Assembly: GCA_038087875.1 (NCBI GenBank)
Contig: CM075989.1
Location: forward strand, 15,564,001 to 15,628,000
Origin: Malacoraja senta
Taxonomy: Eukaryota
DNA length: 64,000 bases
Direction of reading: 5' to 3'
In this document: piece after piece, positions 2,774 to 59,404 of the stretch
Layout: each line of letters opens with the position of its first letter
Numbering within the stretch: position 1 is the stretch's first letter
Translations under genes and position numbers: made by a program
The notes under the pieces: generated by a model
The model's database searches: none
Told to the model about the DNA's origin: nothing
What the model saw: only the letters and a program-made list of their open reading frames with translations

Positions 2774-3275
2774 TCCTACCATCGAGGAGAAGGTACAGAA
2801 GCCTGAAAACCATGATAACCAAGAATAGCTTCCTACCAATTATTAGGCTTTTAAATACAATACAACACTCATCTCAGCAACTATAACCTTCTGTGGATTG
2901 TAGCTAAGGTTGCACTACAGATTTCTGTTTTGCACTGTTATGACTACCTAGAATTACAGTTGTTAGCTTATTAAATGCTTTATATAATTATACTTTATTG
3001 GCGTTGAGATTTTGGGCCTGTTAAGCTGCTGCAAACAACAATTTCATTATTCCATTGTTGGTACATTCCACAATTAAACACACTTGACTCCTGAATAATG
3101 ATTTACATTCTACATAAGGTATTAACTTCAGAAAATCTATTGAAATTGATCTTGTGCTTTCCTAATTTTTTTCAGAATATTATGTCCATTGTTATGACAA
3201 AAAAAACTGGTATGACAATCCCTCCAATACCCCCCCATACATTTGGAAATCCAAATCAATTATGATATTGATATT

Positions 3276-4923
3276 CAGTGCCCTCCATAATATTTGGAAC
3301 AAAGACCCATCATGTATTTATTTGCCTCTGCACTCCACAATTTGAGATTTGTAATAGAAAAAAATCCCATGTGGTTAAAGTGCACATTGTCAGATTTTAA
3401 AAAAAAAGCAGTTTTTATACATTTTGGTTTCACCATGTAGAAATTACAGCAGTGTTTATACATAGTCGTCGTCCCCCCCCCCCCCCCCCCCCCCCCAATT
3501 TCAGGGCACCATAATGTTTGGGACACAACAATGTTGTAAATGAAAGTAGTCATGTTTAGTATTTTGTTGCATATCCTTTGCATGCAATGACTGCTTGAAG
3601 TCCGCGATTCATGGACATCACCAGTTGCTGGGTGTCTTCTCTGATGATGCTCTGCCAGGCCTGTATTGCAGCTATGTTTAGCTTATGTTTGTTTTGGGGG
3701 TTAGTCCCCTTCAGTTTTCTCTTCAACATATAAAAGGCATGCTCAATTGGGTTAAGATCGGGTGATTGACTTGACCACTCAAGAATTGACCATTTTTTAG
3801 TTTTGAAAAACTCCTTTGTTGCTTTAGCAGTATGTTTGGGATCATTGTCTTGCTATAGAATGAACCGCCGGCTAATGAGTTTTGAGGCATTTGGTTGAAC
3901 CTAAGCAGATAGGATGTGCCTATACACTTCAGAATTCATTATGCTACTGCCATCAGCAGTTGTATCATCAATGAAGGCAAGTGGGCCAGTCCTTTCAGCA
4001 GCCATACATGCCCAGGCCATAACATCCCCACCACCGTGTTTCACAGATGAGGTGGTATGCTTTGGATCTTGGGCAGTTCCTTCCCTCCTCCATACTTTGC
4101 TCTTGCCATCACTCTGATATGTTAATCTTCGTCTCATCTGTCCACAAGACCTTTTTCCGGAACTGTGGTTGCTCTTTTAAGTACTTCTTGTCAATCTGTA
4201 ACCTGGCCATCCTATTTTTTGCAGTCAACCAGTGGTTTGCATCTTGCAGTGTAGCCTCTGTATTTCTGTCCATGAAGTATTCCGTGGATAGTGGTCATTG
4301 ACAAATCCACACCTGACTCCTGAAGAGTGTTTCTGATCTGTTGGACAGGTGTTTGGGGATTTTTGCATTATTATAGAGAGAATTCTTCTGTCATCCTTGG
4401 CCTGCCAGTCTCTTTGTGATTAGTAAGCTCACCAGTGCTCTCTATCTTCTTAATGATGTTCCAAACATGATGTTGATTTTGGTAAGCCTAAGGTTTGGCT
4501 GATGTCTCTTAACAGTTTTATTCTTGTTTCTTAGTCTCATAATGGCTTCTTTGCCTTTCATTGGCACAACTTTGGTCCTCATTGATAAACAGCAATGAAA
4601 GTTTCAAAAGGTGATGGAAAGACTGGAGGAAAGACTAGGTGCTGAGAGCTCTCATAACTGCATTAAGGAGGCAATTAAACACACCTGAACAATTACAAAC
4701 ACCTGTGAAGCCACGGTGCCCTGAAATGGGGGGACTATGTATAAACACAGCTGTAATTTCTACATGGTGAAACCAAATTGTACAAAAATGGCTTATAATA
4801 AGATCTGACAATGTGCACTTTAACCACATGTGATTTTTTTTCTATTACAAAACTCAAATTGTGGAGTACAGAGACAAATAAATAAATGATGGGTCTTTGT
4901 CCCAAACATTATGTAGCGCACTG
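3276..4923 (-). mobile_element. Near full-length Tc1-like (IR/DR type) transposon copy B with decayed transposase
   Basis: 1648 bp with >200-bp inverted termini (CAGTGCCCTCC... / ...GCACTG followed by TA at 4924-4925). The minus strand encodes [40 protein letters not shown] and SPDLNPIEH catalytic motifs, broken by stops and frameshifts. Confidence 0.93.
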
Positions 4924-5263
4924 TACCTAACCATGTCAAAGTAGCGTGTTCCTTATTATTATGTTGTAGATTTGTTGTTTGTAAATCAAAACCCGACAGT
5001 TATGTAAAGGGTAGGTGAAGTTTTAATTTTACTTTGATTATGTGTCTTTAACATGTTTGACTAATACACCTAATCAGTTATCTTTCAAAAAGAAGGGTGT
5101 TTGTGAGCATGTTCTTGTGGTACAAACCAAGCAGTTCCATTCCGATCTAGTGTGGTTTCACGGAAGTCTTCTCTGTCAAATAGGATGGCTGTTAAGCAGG
5201 TTCTACTGTATTATTTGACTGTTCTCATCCAGGGTTGTTACTTGGTGTTTTTTATTTTTATAG

Positions 5264-8770: not shown

Positions 8771-9588
8771 AGGCTGATACATGGGCAAGTGAATGAGTAA
8801 AGGATATGCAGTAAAACTGCAATAATCCAACATTTTAGTGATGCTAGACTGGCGGAGTTTCTGGAAAATTGTATATTAATCCCATTAATATGCCAACGTG
8901 CTTTTAATTTAATTTGTTTGCACATTGTCCAATTTCATAATAAATATTAGTTTTGGTGAAGCTATTGTGTTTGAACAAAGCATGAGAAATGGTGCATTTA
9001 AAGTCAGCATGGGAAGAGGAGCTCCAGTGAACCAGATGCCGAACAATCAATATTTCCAAACGCTGGTGTGGTCGATTATTGTTTTACTGTTACCTTGTTT
9101 TTATTACATTTGTGAAGCTGACTTGGTGGAGTGGAGGTGGCTGGCCTTAAAGGGTTAGCTCTGCTCCTTCTTGAATTCTTAACTGGAATGTAGTGTAACT
9201 GAGCATAGGTGAATGTGAGTAGATAAAGATGCAAGGTAAAGCACAACGTTTGAAGGGGTTTCTTTAGGGAGGGGAGAACAAGGATACCTGGTCTTTAGTT
9301 TGATGGAATGATGAAGTCTAGAGGCCCACCTCATTATATTACACACTGATTACATTTTCAGGACAAGAAGTAATGGTATGTGAGCATTTCAAGGTGACCA
9401 CTGCAATTGTTTTAAACCTATATTCTATATTTAAAGTTTGGTAAATGGATGAGATTAAGAATCTTGAAACGAGATGCAAAATTGAAAATTGATACTATCC
9501 ATTTCTGTATGGTTGATATACATTTCTCTTCCTGCTGGGTCACTGACTATTATCTAATACCTTACCTGAATGTCTCCCACTGATAGTT

Positions 9589-9680
9589 AAACACAAAATG
9601 CTGGAGTAACTCAGCAGGACAGGCAGTATCTCTGGAGAGAAGGAATGGGTGACGTTTCGGGTCAAGACCCTTCTTCAGAC
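9589..9680 (-). mobile_element. Short non-autonomous element with hammerhead-like core (Penelope-like family)
   Basis: Flanked by an 18-bp imperfect direct repeat, tgtctcccactgatagtt (9571-9588) / tgtcacctactgatagtt (9681-9698). The same sequence recurs at many sites in the window. Confidence 0.8.
9647..9680 (-). ncRNA. Minimal type I hammerhead ribozyme motif (intact core)
   Basis: Minus strand reads GU CUGAAGA A GGGUC-UU-GACCC GAAA C GUC ACCC: conserved core, stem II, palindromic ACGU in place of stem III and a GUC triplet. Stem I is only ~2 bp. Confidence 0.65.
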
Positions 9681-10551
9681 TGTCACCTACTGATAGTTGA
9701 GTGCTGGGTTTTGGGACTTGGGAATGCTACGGGTGACCAAGATTGAATTTCCTAATTGTCGTCTCATGTATGGACTCGAGCATGATGATCAGGAGTGAGA
9801 ACAATAAACAATTTCCCCTTTTTGATTAGGGAGTTGAGAAGTTGATTCTCATTCTCCCAATATTGTCCTTGATTGAAGTGTCATGATTCAATATTGGCTC
9901 AGTTCGTTTATACATAACTCTATCTGTTTTTGCATGTTTTCTGGGAAAAGGGGAAATTAGTATTTATGGATAAAACCAACAGGGTTGTATTTTATTTTAT
10001 TTGTATTTAACATATTAATAATGCTGGAAATTTAATAATTTTCTACACTCTTTTGTCATGCTACAGTTGGACAAATGATAAAGAAATAAAGATTTTCAAT
10101 TGTGCTTCTGAAATAAGTGTTGCTGCCATATATAATAGCGTACCATATATAATATTGTAAACACGGCTTAGTGAATTTTGAGGATTAACTACCTTTCTTC
10201 CTTTCCCAATTCCTTAACTATTCACAGCCCTAGGTTTGAATCTTGTATAACATGGAAGTAACAACAAACGTTTACACAATTTAATGAAACTGATAGAAAT
10301 AATAGGTTGTCAGAAGGTAGTGCAATCTTGAATGGTCTATATTATCCATTGTGCACCATTTGGCAGTGTGACATCAATCTCAACGTCCATTCAGAATAGT
10401 TATCAAATCCTTAGATGAGGTGGAAGTTTTTATCGCAATAAATATCCTAATTTGAACCATCGCAGTATATTTTCGAACGTAGTTACTTGTGGGTCTCTTT
10501 GTCTTGATTGTTCTTTGAGTTGTTTTGCTGTTATCAAAAGTAAAAGAGTTA

Positions 10552-11212
10552 AGGGCCTGTCCCACTTACGTGTCCTTGGCATGCAAATTACGCGACCTCG
10601 TGGTTGCGTTGAGGCGCACCGGCATCGTGTGGCCGTGCGGGGCCGGTCCCACTGAGAAGCGCGGTGGGGTATGTAGTTGTGCGCGACATCGAACTTTTTG
10701 TAGCGAATGAAATCTTCGCGCGCCAACGGCCTGTCGCGTAACTGACGGCCAAAGTGGGACAGGCCCAAGACCCTGGCGCAACGCAACGTCTCACCTTCAA
10801 CAGCAGCAGAAGCAGGCAAACGATCGCCGAGCTCGGCCTGGGACTCACGCCCGTTGCGTTCCGGATCCGCCCCCACTTCTACTCCCAGAGCGGGGCCAAG
10901 AAAATTGAAGATAGACACAAAATGCTGGAGTAACTCAGCGGGACCGGCAGCATCTCTGGAGAGAAGCAATGGGTGACATTTCGGGTCAAGACCCTTCTTT
11001 CAGACTGAAGAAGAGTCTCGACACGAAACATCATCCATTCCTTCTCTCCAGAGATGCTGCCGGTCCTGCTGAGTTACTCCAGCATTTTGTGTCCATCTTC
11101 AAATTACGTCACGCGTCCAGATGGCTGTGCGGGCGAATGAAGTCGCGCGCGACCTTCGCGGGACTGTCGCGCCTCAACGCGACCACGAGGACACGTAAGT
11201 GGGACAGGGTCT
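10552..11212. mobile_element. Non-autonomous PIF/Harbinger-like DNA transposon (GC/CpG-rich)
   Basis: TIRs agggcctgtcccacttacgtgtcc ... ggacacgtaagtgggacagggtct. TTA on both sides (10549-10551, 11213-11215). Extra internal TIR-like copy near 10752-10767. Confidence 0.8.
10907..11100. mobile_element. Palindromic (head-to-head) copy of the hammerhead-bearing element nested in the Harbinger-like element
   Basis: gaagatagacacaaaatgctggagtaactcagc... is inverted against ...gctgagttactccagcattttgtgtccatcttc. Arms ~95 bp; AAATT on both sides. Confidence 0.85.
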
Positions 11213-12295
11213 TTAGCTTTCTATTGTTTTGCGATGGAAACATATCTTATACTTGTGTATTGATTAAAATATTTGTGGAAGATCGAGTTTCGGGTCAGGT
11301 ATGATATACAGATGGATAAGCGGTTAGAACTGGTGCAGCAATACGTTATGCATTTTTTGAATTGAAACTATTCCCTGTTAGTTCCTGGTGAACATTGACT
11401 GTCAATGAGAAGAAACTGTCATCTCAGTAGTCTGGATTACCTTTGAACAGAGATAGAAGGGCAGTGTGCTAACTCAGTACACCAACCAGGCCCTATCACT
11501 TTGCATTTTTTCACCTTATTTTATTAATATATGCTTGCGTGCATTTGAAAGAATGTGAATTATCAAAATAATTTACCTGCTTCAAAACCAAAGTAACTTA
11601 TCACCAGATTGTTGAGTGAATAAATTGAAAATATGTTTTTAAATGCATTGTTTAAGGAGGGAAGGTCAGAACGGAAAAGTAGAACTTCACTGATAGGTGG
11701 ACCTGGGTTGCTACAGTAACTTGATTCTGTCATCCCATTTTACTTGGCAAGAGAAGCCAGGTTATTCCATAAATCATTCCTGTTGTAGCTGATGCTGATG
11801 CATTCCATCTGCTCCATCATTACACACCACACTGCAGACTATAAATCCCTTGTTTCAGTCCATCTGTTCTTCCTGACTTGCAATTGTTTCAACATTAAAT
11901 TTGTAACACTGAAGTTTTCTGTGAAAGAGAAAGCATATGTTTTAAATTACCAACTAAGTCAAACATGTTTTGCATCTAGCTGTAAAACAGAATACTGAAC
12001 AGAATTGATTCGATTTTTATATTGTAAAAATAGTCTAATATATAATTGTTTAGAGGATTTGGGAAATTACTTACACTTTTGTTTTGCTAATTCTGTACAG
12101 CAGGGGCATCGGATAAAGGAGGATAAACTGTTTAAATATTTCATTAATGTCAACCGATAGTGAAATATGATTCCTGTTAATTTTGTACACAATTAGTTTG
12201 TGAACCAAGCTTTAAAATGACTAGAGAAAGTGCATATTGTTTACTTGGCGTCTGAATTTAATATCGAAAATGTTCATTTAAAAATATTTACTTTG

Positions 12296-17100: not shown

Positions 17101-19349
17101 TATCTTCCAATTTGTCATGCGATAGTTTCCTTGATTCCATATTTAATTCAACCATTTTAGAAATTCAGCCATTCCAGACTGGTAATGCATATTTCCAGTG
17201 TTTAATTTTTCTTTCCTGATAATATTGTCATCTCCGATTTGCACGTCCCGCAGAAACACCATTTTGTTATTTAGGAACCTCTACCACCTTTTAGCCAGCA
17301 CCATCGCCACCACTTGATTTACTGAACCTCCCTTGATCTCTTCTCCGTCTCAGTGGCTTGCCTGTTGTTCTGTCTTTTCCCTTCGACCCTTTCTGTGCAA
17401 CAAATATTTTGTTACTAACTTTTTTAAAATCCTGATGATAAATGGTTAACTAAGAGCATTAGCTTTTTTCATCCATCTGTGGATAAAGTCTGTCCTGAAT
17501 ATTTCCAGAATTTTCTATTTTTATACCTTGATGCTATATATTGAAGAGGAATCCCTGATAGCAAAAATATTCCAGTGGACAATCACCATTCAGCAAGAAA
17601 CACAATATTTTGTAAGCTAAAAACGGTTTTGTGTAAAACATTTTTGGAAAGCAGTCAAATTCTGTGGATTATAGTCAAACCCCAGATTAAAATTTGTGCC
17701 ATTTCTCATGTATTTTCCCGAACATTTGCCAAGAAGTTTTTCTTTCAAGTTTTGCCCACAATATTGCACTGAATCATTCAAAAACATCTGTTTTATTTCA
17801 ACATTCAGTGCTAAATCTAAATACTTGGATTCTTAACAAAAGAGTTTTTCATGTTTTTCACGTATGGAATCTTCATGGTTCTAAAGTAGATTGTATTTAA
17901 AGGTTTCTTACAACTGAAATGAAGAGAAATTTGACCAAAACTTGGGTGGTGAGAATGTGGAGTTCTGTACCACAGAGTCTTGGAGGTTCTGTTGTTGATT
18001 GCCTTCATAAAAGAAGTTGATAGATTTCTGGAAATGAAATTAATTGAGGCTTGTAAGGATAATGCAAGAAAATGGCACTGAGGTGAAAGTTTTGTAGTCT
18101 TGATGAATGGCACAACAGTTTCAAAGAGCTGGCAAGTCTGTTTCTGCTCTTAATTATGTTTAATAGCCTTGGTGCTTTAGATACCATGTTCTATGTTTGT
18201 TTATTAATCCAATATAATAATAATAATGCTCAAATTCAGTTATAATTTCAATAAAATCAGCATTTACATTATGTTCTGTAAAAATTAGACAATATCACTA
18301 CATGTAAACACCAATAGTGGGTTTCAGACAGACCATTGGAGAGATATCATCATTCCTTCCAAATTGTGCACTAATATTTTAATTCTCTTGTGGCAGAATC
18401 ATTACTGATAATATTTTTGCTTGCTAAAGAAATAATGCGTTCTGATGAATATTTTTAGTTTATCTATTGGAATGTATTATTTGAGGTTATTTTTGAAGTT
18501 TCCATTGATTTAAAATTTAGGTTGTGTGTCGGCTTTTAAAATTTGTTCTTGACATGTTTCTGCACTTTGGTCAGGTATTCCTCACCCCCTTCCCTCCTTT
18601 ATGTTGTATTGTGGTACATAAGCATTTGGAATCCTTAATGATTTATTGTGACAAGGCCATTTTTGTTGAGGAATTTGTTTTGGTATAATTCAAGCTACAG
18701 CGTTTCATGTGAGACCAAGTCCTCAGTATAAGGAAGAAAGCAAAGCACATTACTCCAATGATGGAGAGAAAGTATTGAACTCCATTCTCATAGCTTATTG
18801 TGGATTTATTCAACCAAATTAGTGTAGTTCACACTTTCATTTGATATTCTTGGTAATGAGGACAACTTGCTTCTGCTCCATTTGTCTGGATTTGGAGGTG
18901 GCTGAGGCCGATGTTGGAGCTGTCACTCTGCCACAAGTGGGGCAAGGTGTTAATAGGGCAGGTGGGTGCTTTGTGGTACATTTTTTTCGATCATTAATGC
19001 TGATTTTCCGTATGCTGATTTTCATCATGAGCAATCGCGGCCATGAGATTCAATGAAGTCTTCAAGGCTGTTGCATTTTCTACATGAGATATAGGAAGGA
19101 AGCTGGTTGTGGTTGACTAACCCTGCCAGTGGATTTGGAGGAATTTGTGAAAACAACTTTGCAGGCATTTACAGTTATCCGAGATGCCCAGACTGGGTAT
19201 GACTTGTGTATTGGAGGACGGAGATCATTTGCATGCCAGACTCTCATCTTTGTGTAGAAACAAAGAACTGCTGATGCTGGTTTATACCAAAGATAGAGAC
19301 AAAGTGCTGGAGTAACTCAGTTTAATCACCATTTTTGGATCCGAATTAT

Positions 19350-20300
19350 AATATAAAATGGGGATACGTTTGGTCCCAAGGCAGGAAAGTCTAAAAATAG
19401 GGGGCACATTTTTAAGGTGAAAGTGAAAGATTTAAAAGGGACCTGAGGGTCAATTGTTTCACAGGTTGGTGGCTATGTGGAATGAGCTACCAGAGGAGGT
19501 AATGAAGGCAGGTACAATTACAACACTTGGATAGGTACATGAATATGAATGTTTGGGGGAATATGGGCCATTGACCTTCATCAGTCAGTATTGAGTATAG
19601 ACGTCGGGAGGTCATGTTGCAGTTGTATAAGATGTTGGTGAGTCCGTATTTAGAATATTGTGAATATCTGGAGAAGGGTCTCGACCCGAAACGTTACCCA
19701 TTCCTTCTCTCCAGAGATGCTGGCTGACTCGCTGGGTTACTACAGCATTTTGTCTACCTTTAGAATATTGTGTTCAGTTCTGGGCGCCATGTTATAGGAA
19801 AGATATTGTCGAGCTTGAAAGAGTTCAGAAAAGATGTATGGGGTTGTCACCCGGGCTAGAGGATGTGAGGTATAGGGAGAGGGTCAGTAGGCTGGGTCTC
19901 TATTCCTTGGAGCGCAGGAGGATGAGGGGTGATTTTATAGATATGTACAAAATCATGAGAGGAATGCACAGATCAGATGTACAGAGTCTCTTGCCCAGAG
20001 TAGGGGAATCGAGGACCAGAGGACATAGGTTCAAGGTGAAGGGGAAAAGGTTTAATAGGAATCCGAGGGGTAACTTTTTCACACAAAGGGTGGTGGGTGT
20101 ATGGAACAAGCTGCCAGAGGAGGTAGTTGAAGCTGGGACTACCCATCGTTTAAGAAACAGTTAGACAGGTACATGGATAGGACAGGTTTGGAGGGATATG
20201 GACCAAGCGTAGGCAATTGGGACTAGTGTAGCTGAGACATTGTTGGCCGGTGTGGGCAATTTGGGCTGAAGGGCCTGTTTCTACACTGTGTCACTCCATA
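19350..20300 (+). mobile_element. CR1-like LINE 3' fragments (two adjacent)
   Basis: ORF 19838-20164 LGLYSLERRRMRGD...FFTQRVVGVWNKLPEEVVEA is the typical CR1 ORF2 C-terminus, followed by 3' UTR gggctgaagggcctgttt. Confidence 0.9.
19663..19758 (+). mobile_element. Hammerhead-bearing short element inserted in CR1
   Basis: Exact 14-bp TSD tttagaatattgtg (19649-19662 / 19759-19772). Core reads CUGGAGA (one substitution)...GAAACGUU. Confidence 0.85.
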
Positions 20301-25082: not shown

Positions 25083-25175
25083 GTAGACAAAAGTGCTGGA
25101 GAAACTCAGCGGGTGCGGCAGCATCTATGGAGCGAAGGAAATAGGCAACGTTTCGGCCGAAACCCTTCTTCAGAC
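25083..25175 (-). mobile_element. Hammerhead-bearing short element (second subfamily)
   Basis: 7-bp direct repeat gttcaag (25076-25082 / 25177-25183). Minus strand reads GUCUGAAGAAGGGUUUCGGCCGAAACGUUGCC. Confidence 0.8.
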
Positions 25176-25514: not shown

Positions 25515-26690
25515 GTGAGGCAGACCAGATATTCTAAAATGTTTGGCAATGTTGTATTATGATTGTAACTCGGATGTTCTTGAACTGTTAAATGCATTTT
25601 TTGCTGGGATCTTGCTTGAGGGATATAAAGAGGCTGTAGTAGCTATATTTTTTGTATTCTTCATCAATCCTCAGAGAAGGGAATTCTGAAATCCAATATC
25701 TAAATAACTTTGGGCTTGTTTACTTATCCATCACTAGAAATTGGTCTTTTGACCCCTTTAAAAAAAAAATTTGAACATGTCAGCCTTGACGAACCAATGA
25801 TGGTTTGAGCTTTCTCCGAGAAGAAGGAGGTGCCAGAAGAGTTTTAAGGTGGCTAATATTGTGCCTCTATTTAAAAAGGGCTGCAAGGAAAAGCCTGGGA
25901 AATATAGACTAAATATTAAAATATATTGCATTTGGATAGACAGGATGATTAGGGATAGTCAAACTGAGTTTGTATGTGGGAGATCGTGTGTCTCAGATCT
26001 GATTGAGATTTTTTAAGAAGTAATCAAAAAGGTTGATGAGGGCAAATTTGTAGATGTTGTCTATGTGCTTTTCAGCAATGCATTTGATAAGGTTCCGCAT
26101 GGTAGGTTGGATTACATGGGATCCAAGAAGAGCTAGCTAACTAGATATAGAATTGGCTTCACGTAGGGTGATGTTGGAAGGTTGTTTTTCGGAATGAAGG
26201 TCTGTGATTAGTGCTGTGCCACAAAGATCAGTGCTGGGCCCATTACTGTTTGTGGTTTATATCAATGATTTGAATGAGAGGGTAGAAGGCATGGTTAGCA
26301 AGTTTGCAGATGATAGTAAAGTGGGAGGTATCATGGATGGTGAAGATGGTCATCAAAAATTACAGCAAGATCTTGATTAGTTCAGCAAGTAGGCTGAGGA
26401 ATGGTTAATGGAGTTTAATGCAGATAAGTGTGAGGTGTTGCATTTTGGGAAGTCAATCCAGAACAGGACCTTTGCAGTGAATGGCACGGGTCTGGAGAGT
26501 GATGTAGAGCAGAAGGATCTAGGAGTGCACGTACATAGTTCATTGAAAGTAATGGTCCTTAGTAGATTGGATGCTCAAGAAGGCTTTCAGTACATTGGCC
26601 TTCATCAGTTGGGGGTATTGAGGATAGAAGTTGGGATGTTAATTTAAAGTTGTACAAGATGTTGGTGAGGCCGCATTTGGAGTATTGTGT

Positions 26691-26890
26691 AGGAAAGAAC
26701 TGCAGATGCTGGTTTAAATCAAAGGTAGGCACAAAATGCTGGAGTAACTCAGCGGGACAGGCAGCATCTCTGGAGAGAAGGAATGGGTGACGTTTCGGGT
26801 CAAGACCCTTCTTCAGACTGATGTCAGGGGAGTAGTCGGAGACAGTAGGACTGGTGGGAGGTCAGAGACAGTAAGACTGGTGGGAGGTCA
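26691..26890 (-). mobile_element. Longer hammerhead-bearing element inserted in CR1
   Basis: Exact 11-bp TSD gagtattgtgt (26680-26690 / 26891-26901). Includes a ~26-bp tandem duplication at ~26838-26890. Confidence 0.85.
26785..26818 (-). ncRNA. Minimal type I hammerhead ribozyme motif (intact core)
   Basis: Minus strand GUCUGAAGAAGGGUCUUGACCCGAAACGUCACCC, identical to the 9647-9680 copy. Confidence 0.65.
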
Positions 26891-29669: not shown

Positions 29670-30643
29670 GAACATGGATAGGTGACATCTCAGGTCGGGA
29701 CCCTTCTTCAGACCTGATCCGAACCGAAAAGTCACCTATGCATGTTCTCCAGAGATGCCTGCCTGACCCGCTGAGTTACTCCAACACTTTGTGTCCTTTT
29801 GTGTAAATCTGCAGTTCCTTGTTTCTACATTTCAGTGAGGAAGTACAGCCGACATTTTGTGTTGTTCATGAACATCATCCTTTCACACAGAGGCTATCTT
29901 TCTGTTCAAAGATTAGGATGAGTGATCTATCGCTACAGAAATATTGGGTGTAGACAGCCGCTGGTAATAATTATGCACATGGTAATTGTACAAACACCTG
30001 AGGGCCATATTGTTCATATGATTCTGATTGATCTCGGTGTCAGAAAGTTCATAATTGGTTAGCAAGGTAAAAGTCCCTGTCACAGTATTGGCATTTGTAG
30101 TTATGTTCTGGGTTAGTTGTTATGCAGAGCTTTAAATAGGCCAAGAGGTATTCTTTACTGAAGTCCATGTATTTGGAATTTCAGAGCTGCTTCAATTGAA
30201 AATGGTGCTCTATATTGACCAGATGTTCATGAAGACTGCCTCCCTCATTAATAATGTGAGAGGAATTCATGACCACACAGGAAACAGACCAACAATTCTA
30301 GTTGCTCATGTCTGTATATTGTGAAGTTGTTTAAATGCACCCACCCAACCCACAGACTGCATTATCAGGCAATGTGGTGGAACAGAGTCTTGCTCAGCCA
30401 TGACTGATAAAAGAGCTATGCGTGTGGGGATCCCAGTGAAAAATACTTATTTATACTGTCCCCTACTTCACTCTGTTCTCCGGAGTTGCTGCCTAACCAG
30501 CTGAGTAAATCCAGCCAGTCAGACACTGTGATCTGGTGTACAATGAGGAGAAAGTCCTTTAATGCAGGTGTCAGAGAGACAAGTAGCAGGAGCACATATA
30601 TCAGAAAATGTTTGTTGAAATATAAGCAGGTTAGTTTGCTAAC

Positions 30644-35130: not shown

Positions 35131-36829
35131 ACACGCATGCTTAATCCATCTGGAGATCAGGGGAGGTGATCTCCCAACACCAGGTCTCAGTGACGTGAGA
35201 CTGTTGCATCTTCACACGTCCCTGCTGAACGCCTGGGTGGATATGCCGATACAGAAATCCCACATTTACTGTGACTCAGACAGGGAAATGCCGTGAGTTG
35301 TGTGTGGAATGACAGGTATTGTTGTGGAGAATACAGCCCACGGACGCAAGTGCTACCTGGTCAATGGATTTAAACAAAACAAATGACTGCAAATGTTGAA
35401 AAACAGAAACATTAATTAACAAAACTAAGTGAGTCACAACCTGAAAGAATGACCAGCTGACGTGTTGGGTTTGTTGATCTGGAGTCGATTATTATCTGCT
35501 AAAAACTTTAAACAAAATATTTGATGCCAAAAACAAAATCTGATGTACATATGTGAAATACCAAATCAATGGTGACTCTAAGAATCAGTTTTAAAAGCTT
35601 GTTCGGTTATCATTCTTTTGTTTAAAATGCAGACTATTTTTCTGGTGAATGGGAGTTCCAGGCGTTCTTTTATCAGTGCCGATTATTATAACTTGGATGG
35701 TTCCAGCATTCCCTTTGGAGAGCTGCCAGAGCTCGATGTCTCTGTGTAATATTCTACACGAGTTTGCTGGGGTATGAGCATGTTACTTTTGGCAACAGCT
35801 TGGGATTGAAATTGTTTTGGTTGTAGAAGGGGGGTTGTGAGTTGGTGGGTGCGAAAGAGATAAGATGTGGAATCTTGGCAAGGGATATTCCTACAAGCGG
35901 TTGTTTCTGTGAAAGTTTGCTTTTGTTGGTTTCTAATCTTCCCAAATGTGATGCTGTGTCTGGCATGGAAGAGGAGAACAAATCGCAGCTGATATCCTAA
36001 TCTCGGAAAGAGTAAAAGCCTACAAGCTCTCTGGTTTTAAACAGAACCCCTCCCACTTGGAGCAGGAGAGTTCATCCATTGTTACTTTCCTCTGTCGGTT
36101 CTCGCCTATAGATTTAACCATTGATTTACCAGTGCCCAAGGATAACTATTTCAACTGTAAAAGTGTGTTGCAGTGCAAATGAACAAAACTCCCATTGAGT
36201 GAGGAAGCCTGACCTTAATTTGAACCACTTGGTGAGGACCAAGTCATTCAGCCTGAAGTTTTTTCCCATGTTACCATTAAACAAAATTACAATAAATTGA
36301 TTGTAGAGATATGGTTTCAGTTTTCATCACTATTTATTATATTCATGCTATTGGCAAACTACTGCTCTCTCCTGCCTTGGGGCCTGCCCTGCTCACACGG
36401 GGTAATTATTTTGATTGTATTTCATGTCCCACCCAAAATCTCCTATATCATCCCAGCCTGTTAAAATGCTACACTCCCTTGCAGAATAAAACCCCACCTC
36501 CCCTCACTGCATTTTTGCTGCTCTAATATCTCTCTCACTCTAATATCTCTCACTAATATCTCCCTCACTCACCCTACCTTGTATTAATTGGACATCACCT
36601 TTGAGATGCTTTTTCTTTGCTTCATTGAAAGCTTCACGACACAGACCCACTATTTCCTTTTCCATTGCAATCTGTCTTTGCCGGCAATTGCAGGTTTAAT
36701 CTGAAGATCAGAGTGCTTGAGGAACTCAGTGGGTCAGACAACATCTGTGGAGAGAAAGACGATGTTTTGGGTCGATCTGAAGCGTCACCTGTCCGTTCCC
36801 TCCACATGCTGCGTGACCCACTGAGTTTA

Positions 36830-37105: not shown

Positions 37106-38635
37106 TCATCCAGCCCTTCCTGTGTCTCTCTTCTTTATTCTAAAGCTGTTCTGTTTTCATGGCAATTGCCATCTTTTCTAATGAACTTTGATATTGAAGT
37201 TCAGAATGACTCTGAGTTTTCTTCCATTTAACCTGGTCATACGTGGATTGCTGTCTGCGTCTCACTGGATCACATGGTCCTTGGTGCGTTCAGGCTCAGC
37301 TTCTCCCAAGGCAGGCTCTTCCCTTAATTATGAAGACCACGTTCCTCAGCCCTGAAAACATTGCTTGCATCTTTACGTCGCCCAGCCTCACATTACTGTG
37401 AAGCCATGCTCCCTGTAGTTTAAAGCTGGAAATCCTCATTTGCTCTTTTTTGGGGGGTCCCTGATCATTGTGCAAGCTGTGTTGTGCAAAGCATGTTACA
37501 TCTCGCTTATTGTTGAACAGCAGTGCAGTTTAAAGTAGTGTTTCTACGGGAAAATATTCTGTCTCAAATCTTCTGTGGCCTATTTCTGCAACATCCCCCA
37601 ACCCTGTGCCCTTTCAAGGTCACACTGTTTCTTGGCCATTGACTGCTTCCAGTTTGCCAAATCCTCTCATCTCGTTCCTTTAAAGTACTGTGCATTCAAA
37701 TAAAAACCTTAAGCTTTGATGTTTTTACAATTTTTTTTCACTCCAGTCTTTCTGTTGCACACTTTCACTTATATTGATTGCCATTCTCTCCCTCACTACC
37801 CTGCATCACCTCTCTCTCATTCTTCTTAATCTATGAAACCTATTTTCACTTAAGCCCTACCCATTTCCAATGAGTTTAAAGCCTATCTGCAGCCCTCTTT
37901 ATGCAATTTACCAGGACACTGCTACCTGAACAGTTCAGATGCAGCCCATCTCAACACATCAGCTGCTTCCAACCCATGAATCAAGATCCACCTCTCCCGC
38001 ACCAAGTTTTGATCCACCTCCAATCCGATTCACTTTCTGCAAATGTACATGCGATTATCACTCTTGGGGTGACATGAGTCTGCAGATGCTGAAATCTTGA
38101 GTAGGAGAAGAACTGCTGGAGGAACTCAGTGTGTCAGGAGGCATCTGTGGAAGAAAATGGACAGATGACGCTTTGGGTCGGGTCCCTTCTTCAGAATGAA
38201 CTCGCAGGAGGGTCCTGAGCCAAGTCGTCATCTGTTCTGTTCTCTCTGCAGATGTTGCCTGGTCTTCTGGTTTCCAACAGCAGATTAAAAAAAAAAATCA
38301 CCTTTGTTGTTCTGCTTTTCAATTTTGCCCAGAACTGCACATAATTCCTCAGCAGTGTCCTTCCTGGTTCTGTTCATATTGTTGGTTGCCACATGGATCA
38401 TGGCAACTGTTAAAGATGGAATCTGTGTCTGGTATAGAGCAGAGTGGGGGACTAAGCACCCACAGTCACATTATCATTCTCCAAGTTTCCAAAAATTAAT
38501 CTGACCGGTGTGACTCCCTCCAGGAATAATGTGTCCAGGCAATTCTCCCCCTCCCGATGTGTCTCAGTGTTAGGAGCTCAGATTCCAGTTTGTCAACCCT
38601 GAGCAAAAGTTCCCCAGCAGCCAACACTTGCTGCA

Positions 38636-38768
38636 AGTCTGAAGAAGGGTCTTGACCCAAAACATCGCCTATCCATGCTCTTCAGAGATACTGCTTGACC
38701 CGCTGAGTTATTCCAGCACTTTGTGTCCTGTTGTGTGTTAACCAGTATCTGTAGTTCTTTCTTTCTAT
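38636..38768 (+). mobile_element. Hammerhead-bearing short element (core decayed)
   Basis: Exact 11-bp TSD cacttgctgca (38625-38635 / 38769-38779); gtctgaagaagggtcttgacccaaaacatc. Confidence 0.8.
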
Positions 38769-39154: not shown

Positions 39155-39248
39155 GTCTGAAGAAGGGTTTCGGCCCGAAACATTACCTATTTCCTTCGCT
39201 CCATAGATGCTGCTGCACCCGCTGAGTTTCTCCAGCATTTTTGTGTAC
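39155..39248 (+). mobile_element. Hammerhead-bearing short element (second subfamily)
   Basis: Exact 14-bp TSD ctactgtcaccttt (39141-39154 / 39249-39262); gtctgaagaagggtttcggcccgaaacatt. Confidence 0.85.
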
Positions 39249-41199: not shown

Positions 41200-42880
41200 G
41201 TAATGCAGCCAGGAAGAGGTGGTTTCACTCACCCCTCTGTCCCCTCATGCTCTTTTTTTCCCAAAGATTTAGTATTTCAGTCATTTTAACATGACTGTAG
41301 TTCTCTTTGAGGCTTGCATCTTGGAAAATCACGGGAATACCTAAGAGACAAAACGCTGGAGTAACTCAGCGGGTTAGACTCTTCCACTCCAACCCAAAAC
41401 GTCACCTATTCCTTTTCTCCAAAGAATTACTCCAGCATTTTGTGTCTATCTTACATTTAAACCAGCATTTGCAGTTCCTTCCTCCACTCTAAACGTTGTG
41501 CCTTGTTGAACCCTTCGTGTGGATGGTTCTCCAAAGCTGAGCTTTGCTGGGGAAGGAATGTGAATCTCCATGGACATGCCATTCATTCACCTACAGCCTC
41601 GTCAGGAAACTCCTAAAACACGTCAGAGACTTGAGGCAACTTGGAGACAATCAGCTGCGGGCTTTCCCACGAATAGCACTAAGTAATCCGTGCATGCACT
41701 GACCACTCAAGCCAATCTCGGGAACTTTTAAAGAGCATTTTTGCATGATTGTGCATGGTTGAACAACCAAAAAATCTGTCAGACCCACACCATTAGAGGA
41801 TCCACAGATTTTTAAATTGCTTAGAAGCTTTGTTTCTGGGGATTAGTCCTTCAATTTGCCTTTTGCAGGCAAAGATGTTTGGTGTTGGAGGCCAGATTGT
41901 TTACTTTACTTGAAGGGTTGAATGTAAAATGATATCTGCGTTAGGGAGTTCTGGTATTTCCTTGTATTTATTTCAGATTTCTAATAATTTGGTTCAACCA
42001 TTTTGTTTGTTTTTTGTTCTACGAGTAAAGGATAGAAAACAAATTTAAGTGTTATTTCAAGAACATGTTGGAACAGTGATATTTTTCTCATTCTAATTTC
42101 AGCGTGTTATGTAGATGTTAAAGGTAAGTTTTGTTAGGATCAGTAGGGCTCATTGTGTGTGTGGTAATAACATCTTCACATTCTACTCTGCTTCCAACGC
42201 CTGGCACCATAAGGAGAATGTATCTTGTACTCCCGTTATGTTATTATGCAATATCTTTCATGGTACAATTGGTATTGTTTTAATTCTTGCCCTGGATTTT
42301 CACTAAATCATTTTTCCCCAATGATGGAATTACCACCCACAACAAACTGGGTCTGGAATTCTGCAATTTGAAATTCTGCAGCCAGGATATGTTATGTCAG
42401 AAGCATGACTTTTCACAATTTTAGTGACTCTTGTGAAAATCAAGAAACGGCTGAGAGAGTTGATTGCGGCAGAGGCCATGGGAACATCAACACCTCAATA
42501 TCTCATCACTCTTACAGAAGACTTGTATTTACGAATAAGCTGTGGCTGAGCCCAAACTGTTCCAAAATAGTTACAACACTAGCATATGAATGTGGAGGAG
42601 TCAACCCCTCAAATCTGCTCGAACATTCAATAACCTCAATTGGACATTCCCACCACCCCCAAATATTTTTTTTATCAAGACTTTATCTACCTCTGCGTTA
42701 AAACTCTTCAAAATATCTCTCTTCCTCAGAAGGCTATGGAAGCAGTTCTAAAGCTCGTGACTCTCTGGAAGACCGGTTAAATCTGTCACTTTGGTTACAA
42801 GAGAGATCAGCAGCTCAATATTCTGCAGCAAGTGGCTCACCTACGGACACTTCAACGCCTTCTCACCATCCACAAGTCGC

Positions 42881-43095
42881 AATAGACAAAAAATGCTGGA
42901 ATAGCTCAGCGGGACAGGCAGCATCTCTGGATAAGAATGGGTGATGTTTGGGTCGAGACCCTTCTACTGAAGAAGGGTCTGCACCCAAAAGCATCACCCA
43001 TTCCTTCCATCCAGAGATTTTGCATGTTCCTGCTGAGTTACTGCAGCATTTTGTGTCCATCTTCGGTTTAACAAGCATCTGCAGTTCATTCCTAC
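42881..43095. mobile_element. Palindromic copy of the hammerhead-bearing element
   Basis: Inverted arms meeting at cccttctactgaagaaggg. Confidence 0.8.
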
Positions 43096-44244
43096 ACTTT
43101 CACTTGCCTGGATTGGTCCAATGTCAACAGCCCTCAAGAAGTTCAGCAACTTCAGGACACAATGCCCACTTGATTAACACTCCAACCACCACCCTAAACC
43201 TTCACTCTGTCCACCTCTGGATGCAGTGTGCACTATGTTCAAAATAGACTACAATTCCATGGCAAGGCTTTTCTGACAGTCCACAATCATCTCTACCATC
43301 GTGTCGACCCAGACCAGCAAGTGTGTGTGTGAACTCAACCATCTGCAAGTTCTCCTCCGAGCTCCACACATCCTGACCTGGAACTGTTTGGCAGTCCTTC
43401 ATTGTTGCTGGGTTGTATCCTTGAACTTCCTATCCAACAGCACGGTGGGAGTACCTTCACCAGGAGGACTACAGGGATTTAAGACAGCAGATCACCTTTC
43501 GTGCAACTAAGGATTAGAAACAGACCCCAGTCTGGCCATTGATGATCTCACCCTGAAAAATAAATTAAATTTAGTGTTGTAAATGTGTGGAAACAGTTCC
43601 CAAATACGATAACAGAATAAAAGACCACTTTGGAGAACTATATATATACTGATTTTTTTGTGTGAAGAAGTATATAGATTGATTCTAAAGATATTTCTTT
43701 ATTTCAAGGGTGTTTAAGCTTAAGGATAATTATGTATCAGTTGAAGTATTAAATCTTTGGAACAGAAACGTACAATGTTTAATTTTGTTTCCACTTTGTT
43801 CTTTTAGGGTATCCTTCTGTCTAGAAGTTTCTTTTCATCACTGGTGTTGTCCCTTATGATTTGTCCACATGGAATTCTGTTAATCTCAAAATATGTTCAT
43901 CTCAGTTTCCTTCTCAGAACTCATTTAGAGAAACATAAGTGTGAGAACCTCCTGAAATCCTGAGATCTGGGATTCAGGGCTATGGGGAGAAAGCAAGATT
44001 TTGGATGATCAGCCATGATCATATTGAATGGCGATGCTGGCTCGAAGGGCTGAATGCCGTATTCCTGCACCTACTTTCTATGTTTCTATATTTCTATGAA
44101 ATTGACTCGGAACTTGTATGTAAAATTGAGAGCGTCAGCAGATCAAACTAAAAACACATTCACTTGATAATAGAGTAATATTTGATGGTGTTAAAGTCGG
44201 ATTCAGTGACAAACATAAAGGCTGTAACCGCAACATTTTTTCAG

Positions 44245-47726: not shown

Positions 47727-47930
47727 TTAGACACAAAAAGCTGGAGTAATTCAGTGGGACAGGCAGTATCTCTGGAGAGAAGGAATGGGGGAGGTTTCAG
47801 GTCGAGACCCTTGAAGACCCGAATCGTCACCCATTCCTTCTCTCCCGAGATGCTGCCTGTCCCGCTGTGTTACTCCAGCTTTCTGTGCCTTATCGTCGGT
47901 TTAAACCGGCATCTGCAGTTCCTTCCTACG
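47727..47930. mobile_element. Palindromic copy of the same short element (core deleted at centre)
   Basis: gacacaaaaagctggagtaattcagtgggacaggcag... inverted against ...ctgcctgtcccgctgtgttactccagc. Confidence 0.8.
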
Positions 47931-48679
47931 CAACGCTACCATTTTGCCTGACTGCCCCTCTTGGCCGGATGCAACGGAGTGTGGAATTACGGGAGAGCCA
48001 CTTTGCTGGTACTGTGAAGATTGCACTGTCATTGAGTCCTACAGCACAGCACCAGGCCCTTCGGCCCACCCCATCCATGCCTGCCGTCATACCTATTTAT
48101 AGTAATCCCATTTAATCTAGGTACTGTTCCAAGCAGTGGAAGGAAGTTAAATCTATGATTGTAGTTTTTACATTTCGCTAGAAACAAGGTACTGCAGATG
48201 CTGGTTTATAGAACGGGTTTACATTTAGTTCCTCCGTTTCAAATCTGAAGAATGAGTGACTGGGAAACTGGGAAGGTTCTCTTTAGAGCAGAGGAGGTTA
48301 GTTAGGAGAAAATTTGAGTGGAATGCTTAAAACTATTTGCAGTTTAAATCAAGAAAGTAAGGAGGTGTTGTTTTTAATGAAACGGGAGTGTCAGTACCTT
48401 GAGGGCACTGGGTGAACAGCTAGAGGGAAGATGAGGGTGATTTGTAATAGTGAGTACCATGATCTGGTATGCGCGGCTTGAAAGAGCAGTGTAACCAGAC
48501 TCGCTCGCGTTTAGAGGAGTATTGCATAATATTTTTAAATTTAAACAATATTACTATGTTCATCAAATTTTTGTGTACATAACACTGACATTTATTTGCA
48601 TATGCTTTTAGTACAAGCCATGTTATTCCATTGATTGTATAGCCAGGATGACATTGGATTTTGTATACATATGTGTTTA

Positions 48680-53532: not shown

Positions 53533-54359
53533 TTTCTTTAACAAGTTCAGGTAATTTAGATTTTCTCTGTCCAAACTGGTCATTTCTGCTGTACATCATC
53601 CATCTGACCTTGCAGGCCAGGGTTGGCGGAAATGCCCCCACTGTTCCATTGTTGTTTCCTCTTTCTCTCTCTCTCTAAATGATCTCGTTAACCCATAAAC
53701 CAGATGGTTTCATCAGCACCTGATCCCCATACAACCCTGACATCAGCCTATATGCTATAAATCCAGGCTTCCAGCACCTGCAGTTTGTCGGTGTTCTCTT
53801 GCCCCATCTTCTGTGCTTGGCTGGATGTTTTTTGGATGTCATTAGTTAATGATCCCTGGAAGTTTCTAGGTGGCACTCTCTAACCCGACCCTATCATATC
53901 TACTGTTTTATCATGTGAAAAACAAAAGTACCATTCAATCTGAGTGGGAATAATTTGATTAAATAAACGACCCTTCAATTCTGTTAGTCAGTATTTTTGC
54001 AAGGATTTTGAGATCATTGTTTTGAGATCATTGAGTCGTAGCTTCATCCATTTGGACATGGACATGCGTATGACTTTATATATTAGTTAGAAGGTATGGA
54101 TGAAACCTTTTTCCTAATTCTGTTGGTTCACAGCACCCCAAACTGCAGTCGTATCCCTTCCAAGAATTATAATAAAACAAAACTTAGTTATCATTTATCG
54201 TCCACTTTTCCAATGTTGTCAAGCTTTTGATTGTCCTTAAACGCATGCCTGTAATATTTTTAAGGCAAGTTCCAGGAATTATCACATCACTTGATACATG
54301 CTGACTAGGGTATAATGTCTCTTAGAGTTATGGAAACTAGTGTACATTCCCTGAGCAAA

Positions 54360-54660
54360 AAAAAAAGCACAAAGTGTTGGAATGTCTTAGCGGGTCAGGC
54401 AGCATCTCTGGAGATCATAGATAGGCGACGTCTCAAGTTGGGACCCTTTATTGGATTGATTTTAGTAGGGGGTGAGAAAGTTGGATGATAGGTGAAGGCA
54501 GAACAAAGCCAGGAAAGAGATAGGTGGATACAGGTGAGAGGGTTGATTAACAGATGGGTGGATAAAGGCTAGAGATGAACAGGACACAAAAGGCTGTGAG
54601 ATTAGGAGCGAAAGACGTTAACTGTGAGGCAGAGGACGGGATGTAGCTAGAAGGGAACCT
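54360..54660 (-). mobile_element. Longer, older copy of the Penelope-like terminal sequence
   Basis: cacaaagtgttgg...agcgggtcaggcagcatctctggag followed by a purine-rich extension. Confidence 0.6.
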
Positions 54661-54691
54661 GTTGGTTAGGATAGACACTCTGGGAATCACA

Positions 54692-55012: not shown

Positions 55013-56299
55013 TTGCTCCGTGCGCTCGCTTACGCTAGTGTGTAAAACGTTTATTCTCACAATGAATAAAATGTTGTTACTGTTGTACCTGCCCGAGCAG
55101 AGTTGGGTTAGGGTGAGAAAGTGTTAAGCTGAGGCAGAATGCTGTTCGCCCGGCTTCTGTGCACCCATTGTATTAATGTGGAGACAGGAAGCTGGCCATC
55201 CTTCCGTCTAACTGGCTGCTTTGTTTTTGTTCTGGAACAGCAAGTGAAAATCTCGCAGTATTGAATTTCAATGACGGTCTTAATTGCAAAGCACCCACAC
55301 GTGGTTACAGATGAGCAAATTCACTGCAACTAGGTGCTAATTTAAAATCATTTCAGATATATTCTTGAAGTGCAAAGGTTTTGAATTATGCAGGGTATCA
55401 TGTTATTTACTATTCTAAATAATTGGTCAGAAATAATCAATTGTAGAATAGCTTCTGTGGAATAATGTAAAAAGTAAATGTCACTCCTAGATTCAGCAAG
55501 CATTAAATGGGGCATTGTGGTTTGATCGTTTCTTGAAAATCCGGTTTGGAGAACTAGCTGTGTGCGAAACCTTCTTGAGGTTTTCCGTCTGGTATTCCTC
55601 CCACTCACTGCTCTCCTTGTGGGGCTGAGTAAATATTGAGACTGGCAGCACCCCCATTGATTGTCACCCCAATATTTGGTGACGAAAGATCATCACCCTG
55701 AACGGTTGGGTCTAGTTCCTTCCTCACAGATGCTGCATGACCTGCAGTGTGTTCCCAGCACTTTGTGCTTCGCTTTAGATGTTTGAAACACATTTGCATT
55801 TACAAAGGAAGGGACTAGTTTGATGTTATGATGGGCACATGTGCTGAGGTACAGTTAAAAACTTTGTTTCGCACTCTATCCAAACAGATCAGATATCCAT
55901 ACATAGATACAAACTAAAGTACAATTGATAGAGCAAAGAGGAAGGTACAGAGTGCAGGATATGGACCTTAGCAATGTCCTGATAATTTGGATGTTGAATT
56001 GATAAAAAATAATTAACTTCTTTATATTTGATTTTTACGTTTGGAGATTTTGTAAATTTAAAAATCTCCAAAAGGTCACTTGGTTGAATAGTCAGTAATA
56101 CACAGATACAGGCTGATAGGTAGCAGCAAACATTCACCCAGATAAGTGCCTAGGCAGGAGCGCATCCCAACCAAGAGGGAGTCTAACCACGTATTCTTGA
56201 CATTCAAGGGCATGATTTTGCTGACACCCCCCCACCATCAAACTCCGAGGTGATATCCTTAATCCAAACCGTATCTGAACCCAGGCACATGAATACCGT

Positions 56300-56431
56300 G
56301 TGTCGGAAGGATCTTGCAGATGCTTGTTTAACCGAAGATAGACAAAAAAAGCTGGAGTAACTCAGCGGGTCAGACAGCATCTCTGGAGAAAGGAAGAGGT
56401 GATGTTTTGGGTCAAGACCCTTCTTCAGACT
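56300..56431 (-). mobile_element. Hammerhead-bearing short element (core decayed)
   Basis: gctggagtaactcagcgggtcagacagcatctctggag...gggtcaagacccttcttcagac. Confidence 0.8.
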
Positions 56432-56469
56432 GCAGCAGTAGCTCAGAGGCTGGGAACCCTTAAGATGAC

Positions 56470-57045: not shown

Positions 57046-59404
57046 CCTCCTGATTCTCCACAGCTTTATGTGAGGAGGGTTTTGGGAAACTCTCCACTTG
57101 CCTGCATAAGTGAAACATTTAAGCCTGAAGCAATCTGTTTAGTGACAACCTAAACTATCCCTTCCACCCGTTGCCAGTATACTGGTTGTATTGTGTGTCA
57201 TCTTCAAACTCTCTTGCATTTACTTGCCAGTCTATGAAAACAGCACTTCTAAAACTTGTGCCCACCAGGACAAAGGCACCGGGCGCTTCGGATCATTTGT
57301 GAAATAACACAGTGTCCTGATGGAAAAATATCAGTTTCTTCATCACCGCTGGGTCTAGAGACCTTGGATCTTTGGTCTAAAGCAGCCCCTTGAATTCCTC
57401 ACCAGGAAAGATGTCCAACTTCCCAAGGGCAGCTCGGGTTGGGCAGACTATGCTGGCATTGCTAGTGACTTCCATGTCCTATTTTTAAAAAAGAAATAAA
57501 ATCACATTGAATGCTGGCTCGAAGGGGCGAATGACCTACTCCTGCACCTATTGTCTAAAATGTTTTCTTCCCCAAAAAATCTGGGATTGTTTTCAAATTT
57601 TGCATTGCCCTACAACTTAATTTAGTCTCATTGACCAAGGTCACATAAATAACGTGTTGTTATTTCCCCCTTCTGTGTTATCCCAGGATTGGTTTGGATT
57701 TTGTCTTCTCTTCCCTCTCTTCATTGTGGAATCTCAACATGGCAGAGAAGTGATGGGTTGCTTTACATTCTGTTCAGATTTCCAATGAACAAATAAAGGT
57801 TGGATTCTTGTATGTGTTGTTGATGAGGAGTAATTGCTGGGGATCGAGGAGCTGTTGAATGGAGCTTGTTGTGCTGGATGATCAGTGCAAATAAAGTTCC
57901 ACAGAAGGCTTGTCATGTTACTGCCATCTATTGACTGCGACTGGGATTTCTCCATGGGAACAAATTTTTGTTTCTCCATCAGGGACCGAACCTGTTTGTA
58001 TTCTCCACTGTTGTTGCTATTGCTACTCAGTGTCTATTACCAGAGGATCTTCAGAGGGATTGAGGCTTGTGTTCTTGGCATTTCCATTTGCGCCTAAACT
58101 AAAAGAAGCACAAAGTTCAGCGTTGGAATCATTAGACAGTTTTAATATGATATAAAAAAATAAAATATTTCTACTCTGCTCAAATAATTTGAATTCTCAA
58201 CCCGAAAAGTCACCCATTCTTTCTCTCCAGAGATGCTGCCTCTCCCGCTGAGTTACTCCAGCTTTCTGTGTCTATCTTCGGTTTATTTGCAGTTCCTTCC
58301 TACACAGAAATATTTAATTTTTTGATATATTGCTTAAGATTTCCATTGAGTATGGAATTCATTTTACACTTTATACATTTATTTGTGCTGTGTTATGTTT
58401 CCATGTTCAAATCCCCCTTCAGAGACTTGAGCCCAGCAGTCCAGCAGCAGTGAGCGAGTGAGTGCTGCAGTGTTGCAGGTGACTTCCTCTGGATATGATG
58501 TTGAACTGAGGGGCTCACCTACTCTCTAAAGTGATAATGAAAGATTCCTGTTTCCACGAAAAAGAGAGTGTTGTCCACTGTTTATCCTGAATCAGTCTTC
58601 CTACAAGGATTCAATTATGAGAGCTTACTGTGTGAAATTGGCAACAATGTCACCCAAAGCACAATTGAAACTGCCCTGCAAAAGCCCTTCATTATTTCTG
58701 AAACACTTTGGGACTTTCTGAAAGGGATGCACAGGCACTACTCAAACGCAAGTCATTCACTTTCTTTAAGTATGTTGGAAGGTGTCACCTGTGGAATAAA
58801 CAGGCACAATGTTGAATAGTTCTTGAACTGTCTAATGTTGTCAGAAGTAGGGAACATTGGCTGCAAAAGTACTGGGGGCAGATGAGAATTGTTCTGGTAG
58901 GGAGCTGGCACAGACCTGATGGGCCAAACGGCGGCCTTCTGTGCTTTACCCATTCTATGACTGTGATTTTGCTGCCAATACGAGGTTGCACACATTTCAT
59001 CCTGCCGAGCTGAGCTAAATTACCATTTACTTGTTTCACAGCGTCATTTGAGTAAAATGTGTAGACCAGGACACAGGTGCCATCCGATCTTTTAACGTGT
59101 CCTTATGACCTTGGTTAGATGCCTCATTGAAAGATGCTACTTCTGGCAATGTAGCACCCATTACGTTTTGCACAGAGATCTTGTGCGATTTTCACTGGCA
59201 TTAAAAAAAAATCTTACTCTCGTCATTTTTAAATGTTGGCATATATTTATGTCATCATAGTCATCAAAATAAATGAAGGTAAAATAATCTACTCTTAATC
59301 CATAAAAATGGCACCATTGTCATAGAACTCCAACGAGAGAGGAGGTGGTTTAATTGCACGTTCGGTAGTAACCTGCTGATTCTGTCTGGCGTGTTTTGGG
59401 GCAG

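Follow-up and report, generated by a model that had tools for sequence, protein, structure and literature searches.

Is the short repeat at positions 9589..9680 of this skate DNA a mobile unit in its own right, a ribozyme RNA that became dispersed, or the end of something larger? The stretch analysed here (64,000 nucleotides of Malacoraja senta, hereafter the window) had been predicted from its letters to hold an abundant family of retrozyme-like elements with a minimal hammerhead core. Minimal hammerheads were described in 2014 by Cervera and de la Pena (PMC4209133) in the terminal repeats (pLTRs) of metazoan Penelope-like elements (PLEs), so the kind is already published, and cartilaginous fish are not named in those sections of that paper on which we draw. 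The results below make it probable, in our judgement, that the repeat is the 3′ terminal repeat (pLTR) at the end of a Penelope-like retroelement, present as numerous short insertions that are probably inactive.

Results

A profile built from 19 arms and run over the whole window finds the repeat as 27 arms at E<1e-3, spread over 20 loci (Table 1) and covering 2,379 bp (3.7%), i.e., about one locus per 3 kb; the reversed window, used as a control, gave no hit. The copies are dispersed, 90-133 bp long, and carry a minimal hammerhead motif. All 11 positions named in the original prediction hold the repeat, the one placed at 19663 having its true start at 19667, and the forms of ~200 bp each consist of two head-to-head arms and are not a longer unit. 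Two weaker profile hits are perhaps older relatives. Two hammerhead patterns had no match in viral and metagenome contigs, and the second had none in prokaryote genome contigs either.

Table 1. The repeat and related features in the window (numbering of the 64,000-nucleotide stretch)
Feature	Position	Strand	Remarks
Short-form copy, ~92 bp, without tail	9589..9680	-	starts at hammerhead 5′ edge
Minimal type I hammerhead motif of the 9589 copy	9649..9680	-	predicted cut between 9651 and 9650
Target-site duplication of the 9589 copy	9571..9588 (left), 9681..9698 (right)		18 bp, 16/18 match
Head-to-head inverted pair, both cores damaged	10906..11100		arms 90% complementary, private variant in common
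3′ half and tail, no hammerhead	19251..19320	-	
Short form, mutated core	19667..19758	+	14-bp target duplication; within LINE fragment
Second subfamily (UUCG loop)	25083..25175	-	all core letters kept; stem II lacks one base; weak duplication of 7 bp
Long form with tail, intact core 26789-26816	26686..26890	-	11-bp target duplication; ~70 bp of pyrimidine-rich sequence upstream
Optional 3′ tail, 40-44 nt, between two alternative 3′ ends	26686..26729	-	
Weak profile hit	29329-29377	+	E 0.01
Inverted pair	29670..29829		left arm interrupted by assembly gap
Fragments	30472..30515, 47361-47401, 55681-55790	+	
Old inverted pair	36709..36827		
Old inverted pair	38080..38283		
Long form, third subfamily	38636..38768	+	G12 and G16.2 mutated; 11-bp target duplication
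Second subfamily, short form	39155..39248	+	stem III palindrome lost; 14-bp target duplication
Inverted pair	41343..41487		left arm short, right arm tailed
Inverted pair	42883..43097		left arm short, right arm tailed
Weak profile hit	46535-46618	-	E 0.004
Inverted pair	47728..47932		left arm short, right arm tailed; imperfect duplication
Decayed copy, then ~240 bp upstream of 70% pyrimidine	54359..54690	-	upstream stretch likely more of the parent element
Long form, mutated core	56299..56432	-	no target duplication found in the flanks
Long form truncated inside stem II	58195..58306	+	

The motif at 9649..9680 is made of a 2-bp stem I, CUGAAGA, an extra A, a 4-bp stem II, GAAA, the palindromic ACGU and C17. 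Searching the window for the pattern CUGANGA-N10-22-GAAACGUH gives three matches (9651-9678, 25147-25173 and 26789-26816), where shuffled sequences give a mean of 0.01 and never three in 100 shuffles; a descriptor that requires pairing as well finds the copies at 9651 and 26789, plus one unrelated loose match, and its strict form has a mean of 0.03 in 100 shuffles. These three intact cores come from 12 arms that span the core, arm 10907L not being counted as intact given its extra A in the core and a U at 15.2, and all three lie on the minus strand. A strand bias (3/7 minus arms and 0/5 plus arms) was considered and dropped, the numbers being too small to interpret. The cores at 9651-9678 and 26789-26816 are identical and intact, just as predicted, the prediction having left out that both are on the minus strand.

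One extra base follows A9, and over the 12 rows the 10.1-11.1 pair is GC in 11 and GU in one, whilst the palindromic 15.2-16.2 segment, which has no loop 3, reads ACGU in the three intact copies; 15.2-16.2 is CG in five of the 12 rows and the others differ mostly by CpG-type changes. Core, extra base and palindrome are all present, which agrees with the proposed layout of the minimal type I hammerhead of PLEs. As stem III has no loop, it could form only between two molecules. The motif pairs in 85% of the cells against 10-43% in slid controls (12 rows), and 406 of 500 shuffles pair as well as the real alignment; no two-sided change occurs in the 12 rows, all changes that keep pairing being to G-U. 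The second subfamily, which was said to change stem II and keep pairing, does keep it, only through one-sided G-U changes and with no two-sided ones, and neither of its copies is a clean example: 25083 is without one base of stem II and 39155 without the palindromic stem III. Rfam (Hammerhead_1), searched at E up to 1, lent no support, the only match being a chance one to a miRNA hairpin below threshold; a model of the canonical hammerhead would not be expected to catch minimal ones.

The non-CpG positions of the core differ in 5/152 cells, compared to 127/1013 in the 3′ body, a contrast that the trimming of mismatched 5′ ends in local alignment may exaggerate, whereas the catalytic G12 differs in 6/19, like other CpGs (25/91 and 7/36). 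Such a pattern would fit constraint in the source elements followed by decay after insertion, and most copies are probably mutated and inactive. The best fold of the monomer pairs CUGAAGA with downstream sequence; in the two best copies the hammerhead-like fold is less stable than this by 7.7 and 8.3 kcal/mol. Folding z-scores from -0.56 to 0.95 indicate no unusual stability.

If numbering starts at the first G of the motif (+1), the 3′ ends of 28 arms fall at +88 to +104 (11 arms), at +125 to +133 (10) or elsewhere (7). The two alternative ends, 40-44 nt apart, bound the optional tail. Single arms make up 13 of the 20 loci and head-to-head inverted pairs the other seven, three of which (41343, 42883 and 47728) are tailed on the right arm only. 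Target duplications of 11-18 bp with a score of at least 11 flank 5 of the 17 loci tested, against 1/272 mismatched-flank controls; among the other 12, two are weak and ten are at chance level. The target duplications, the optional 3′ tail and the inverted pairs together support the view, drawn from the sequence, that the copies were retrotransposed.

The 5′ ends are more peculiar. Nine solo copies extend as far as the ribozyme, and six of them begin no more than 2 nt from +1; one of the remaining three is cut inside stem II, and two (26686 and 54359) continue upstream into sequence of 70% pyrimidine. No more than 2 of the 20 loci reach beyond the ribozyme on its 5′ side, and three copies (9589, 38636 and 39155) have their target duplication no further than 1 nt from this edge. 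Random 5′ truncation of a 3-kb RNA does not predict such a fixed edge, which counts against simple truncation of a PLE. Many copies thus begin where the ribozyme begins and not where it would be cut, which suggests that short, uncut RNAs were copied.

The same edges appear outside the window. Contigs from four runs were aligned to 26680-26900 at 82% likeness, with 310,965 matching in X1 (possibly the window's own source), 187,791 in X23, 355,197 in X2 and 34 in X24, figures of contig depth that are not copy numbers; the kind of data in X24 is uncertain and this run is not taken as evidence of expression. Among the 24 of 850 rows listed, loose ends concentrate at the two 3′ ends, 26726-26731 in three runs and 26686 in X23 and X24; further rows, of ~1,100-1,400 contigs each, stop at 26818 or 26819, where the flanks are unrelated (agreement 0.31-0.32), and none of the 24 shows a loose end at the predicted cut site 26789/26788. 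Behind 26821, also among the rows listed, each of the three deep runs has 941-1,820 contigs with a common upstream consensus that is rich in pyrimidines. Head-to-tail joints occur, among the 15 of 520 joint rows listed, in 27, 26 and 32 contigs (26818 to 26730) and in 27, 15 and 15 contigs (26818 to 26686) of X1, X23 and X2, respectively. The commonest joint among those 15 rows is a tail-to-tail one, 26686/26730, which brings a long and a short end together on opposite strands, with 39-52 contigs per deep run; this form is absent from the window. The change at G12 takes 14-15% of the depth in the three deep runs, against 12% and 10% at a CpG outside the core in X1, and no variant is among the rows listed for the CUGAAGA bases, where coverage is thinner.

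None of the copies in the window has a reverse transcriptase or GIY-YIG frame joined to it. A Pfam scan of 290 of the 316 frames in the window, each at least 61 amino acids long, yielded hits of LINE and Tc1 type and no PLE-type domain, so that a link to Penelope-like termini through an attached open reading frame was not found among the window's frames. An ATG is absent from the core, and following the frame that stays open across the repeat led to no reverse transcriptase protein. A peptide read through the repeat matched 24 proteins of 54-216 amino acids, none with a Pfam family. In one of them (P0017) the repeat is followed by a stretch that matches window positions 51907-52050 (E 6e-5), and an Atlas look-up with part of this protein gave only hits under 0.9. 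The same region shows, in another frame, CX4CxxC, a later CxxC and histidines. A decayed frame runs on the plus strand from 51639 to 52030 and possibly resumes at 53537-53555, a LINE interrupting it at ~52050-53530. By the zinc-finger-like spacing of its cysteines and histidines, a layout given for Neptune-type endonucleases, this frame may resemble the end of a Neptune-type PLE endonuclease; Pfam and homolog searches gave it no support, and the possible continuation of the relic aligns to the repeat no better than chance, with a score of 28, the shuffle maximum being 40 and 54 of 364 window segments scoring as high. Attachment of the repeat to a Penelope-like element is what we infer.

Discussion

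By its anatomy, and in the way it works, the repeat is most likely a PLE end with a minimal hammerhead. It shares with the minimal hammerheads of PMC4209133, as far as the relevant sections of that paper describe them, a type I core with an extra base after A9, the G10.1-C11.1 pair, a palindromic 15.2-16.2 without helix III, and an existence as several subfamilies of mostly solo, dispersed motifs. Its stems are shorter than those of the S. mansoni families (2 and 4 bp, as opposed to a stem I of 4-5 bp and a stem II of 7-8 bp), though a helix I of 2 bp, as here, is described for D. virilis, and no counterpart of the compensatory changes reported between families in that paper was found among the 12 rows of the skate repeat.

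PLE insertions, in the parts of Craig et al. 2021 (PMC8557442) and Arkhipova et al. 2013 (PMC3846280) that treat them, are 5′-truncated, often have an adjacent inverted copy and carry an optional 30-40 bp tail; rotifer examples have duplications of 8-10 bp, and an initiator-like word stands in a rotifer pLTR. The skate copies are alike in their 5′ truncation, adjacent inverted copies, tail on one end and duplications of variable length, and differ in that most insertions comprise no more than the final 90-133 bp and in their clustered 5′ ends. A guide to mechanism is Poseidon of Anolis carolinensis, studied by Frangieh et al. 2024 (PMC11167929). According to the portions of that study used here, its enzyme both nicks the two strands and extends them; the template is uncut RNA, within which synthesis begins at either of two sites, one on each side of the tail; the hammerhead cuts only with protein, and its cleavage is not needed for insertion in vitro. 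In Poseidon, too, the hammerhead lies ~80-120 nt upstream of two alternative ends with the tail between them, and there is no sign of the cut site defining ends, but its open reading frame starts at stem II, whereas the skate core has no ATG.

The skate copies could then have arisen as follows. A PLE endonuclease would nick the target, and its reverse transcriptase would start inside the RNA at one of two sites, near +90 or near +133, so that the tail would be optional; copying would pass through the uncut hammerhead and usually stop at its 5′ edge, with priming from both DNA strands, or fold-back, giving the head-to-head pairs. The hammerhead would be under selection in source elements only, where it is predicted to cut solely as a dimer or with help from protein, and solo copies would decay without constraint. 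The properties of PLE insertions and of the anole enzyme account for the two 3′ ends, for inverted pairs with unequal arms and for the scarcity of ends where the ribozyme would cut. What such properties do not account for is the stop at the 5′ edge of the motif. Transcription may begin there, at TCAGTC; the cDNA may fold back where the alternative hairpin has its base; or the source elements may themselves be short.

The first of these deserves some elaboration, tentative as it is. Where the hammerhead begins, the longer form has the letters TCAGTC, which are initiator-like by the general initiator consensus. Transcription may start at this very edge, and internal priming 90 or 133 nt downstream may give a short, defined cDNA that is inserted en masse, comparable, by analogy, to the strong-stop DNA of LTR elements; we find this conceivable but rather doubtful. 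The ribozyme would stay uncut in the alternative hairpin. The consensus base next to the end at 26819, on its outer side, would be a sense-strand G in all three deep runs, as if from a copied cap, which is a weak hint in the same direction. If true, skate genomes would have been filled by a by-product, or a SINE-like parasite, of internal initiation in PLEs, and a fixed edge of this sort would explain the many solo hammerheads of PLE-rich genomes. A start at the hammerhead border isn't the known arrangement, since in D. virilis the start precedes by 46 bp an intron whose end is at helix I (in the portion of the literature on which we rely). A 3′ splice site at the 5′ border, as in D. virilis, was also considered; it fits the upstream pyrimidine tract, yet on its own it would create no free 5′ end, and it was rejected.

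The fixed edge also invites another reading of the short form, as a self-standing, non-autonomous element that came from a PLE end, is transcribed from the 5′ edge of its ribozyme and is mobilised in trans by PLE protein. Its origin would be the same as for the PLE-end reading and only the template differs. The clustered starts of the solo copies (6/9), the three target duplications that abut them, the ~1,100-1,400 contigs per listed row that end at 26818/26819 with unrelated flanks, and the fact that both window copies of the second subfamily are short forms all speak for it; however, longer forms with shared upstream sequence are about equally frequent (the 941-1,820 contigs behind 26821, among the rows listed), and short copies lose the bases upstream of the putative start. 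An independent non-autonomous family, as originally predicted, is possible though on the whole unlikely, truncated ends of a longer PLE explaining most of the anatomy.

A retrozyme is much harder to reconcile with the data. Non-LTR retrozymes, as treated in the relevant parts of Cervera and de la Pena 2020 (PMC7229834) and of a 2026 preprint by Li et al. (10.64898/2026.07.22.740005), are likewise non-coding, pLTR-related and equipped with a type I hammerhead, and the preprint derives those of vertebrates from pLTRs and counts many monomers; but they are tandem, with circular RNA and canonical hammerheads (PMC7229834), whereas the skate repeat is dispersed, minimal and often inverted. Were the dispersed copies monomers reverse transcribed from tandem units that the hammerhead had cut and that were then circularised, ends should lie at the cut site, or more than one unit should be present; the ends lie instead at the 5′ edge of the motif. 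In the window, 11 rows were examined and none is a tandem array of the unit, and the head-to-tail joints, 15-32 contigs per run for the two main rows, are few compared to thousands of unique-flank ends, among the rows listed. The label ‘retrozyme-like’ is accordingly given up, and we consider this origin quite improbable. More improbable still is a polymerase III SINE on the opposite strand, with the hammerhead as a passenger. Words resembling the A box and B box, judged by their usual consensuses, stand there 41-42 nt apart with two mismatches in total in 4 of 16 arms, and 38 nt apart with one mismatch in a further arm; this was found after the fact, 42/2000 shuffles match such words as well, and the mismatches rise to four in both copies of the second subfamily, though these keep the letters of CUGAAGA and GAAA. 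Nor is there a tRNA match, an Rfam match at threshold or a repeat tail. Hairpins at 7/20 loci could finally recall a MITE whose likeness to a hammerhead is due to chance, but 13/20 loci are single arms, the arms of the hairpins are unequal, and the motif is far above chance; variable, long duplications (11-18 bp) and single-arm copies contradict this idea, which we hold to be barely credible.

No description of this skate repeat family was found in the papers searched, Repbase and Dfam lying outside the comparison, and the 2026 preprint covers one chondrichthyan in the part used here. What the repeat adds to the terminal repeats of PLEs already published is mainly lineage and scale (188,000-355,000 contigs in each of three runs); an abundant family with such sharp ends is in addition a natural record of the points at which reverse transcription starts and stops.

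Surroundings of the copies

The copies at 19667 and 26686 lie at a near-identical position in two related LINE fragments, as independent insertions; the sequences of their target duplications overlap, a hint that certain targets are preferred. A 26-bp tandem duplication (26835-26893) is found within the upstream extension of the latter copy. The inverted pair at 10906 is inserted into a GC-rich, MITE-like element (10536-11228) with inverted ends, its 41-nt arms being 78% complementary, and the flanks of the copy at 58195..58306 (58129-58172 and 58306-58349) are inverted copies of each other over 44 nt (73%), with no direct duplication.

The probable host gene is cingulin-like 1, six exons of which lie on the plus strand between 40987 and 62204, the one at 46882-47007 being 98% identical to its counterpart in Amblyraja radiata and Leucoraja erinacea. 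No earlier exon of this gene was found in 1-40986, implying that one intron is very long or else that the sequence is broken at the gap 29470-29669. Fragments of a Tc1/mariner-type transposase occupy 1905-4926 (HTH and DDE_3 Pfam hits under the curated cut-offs).
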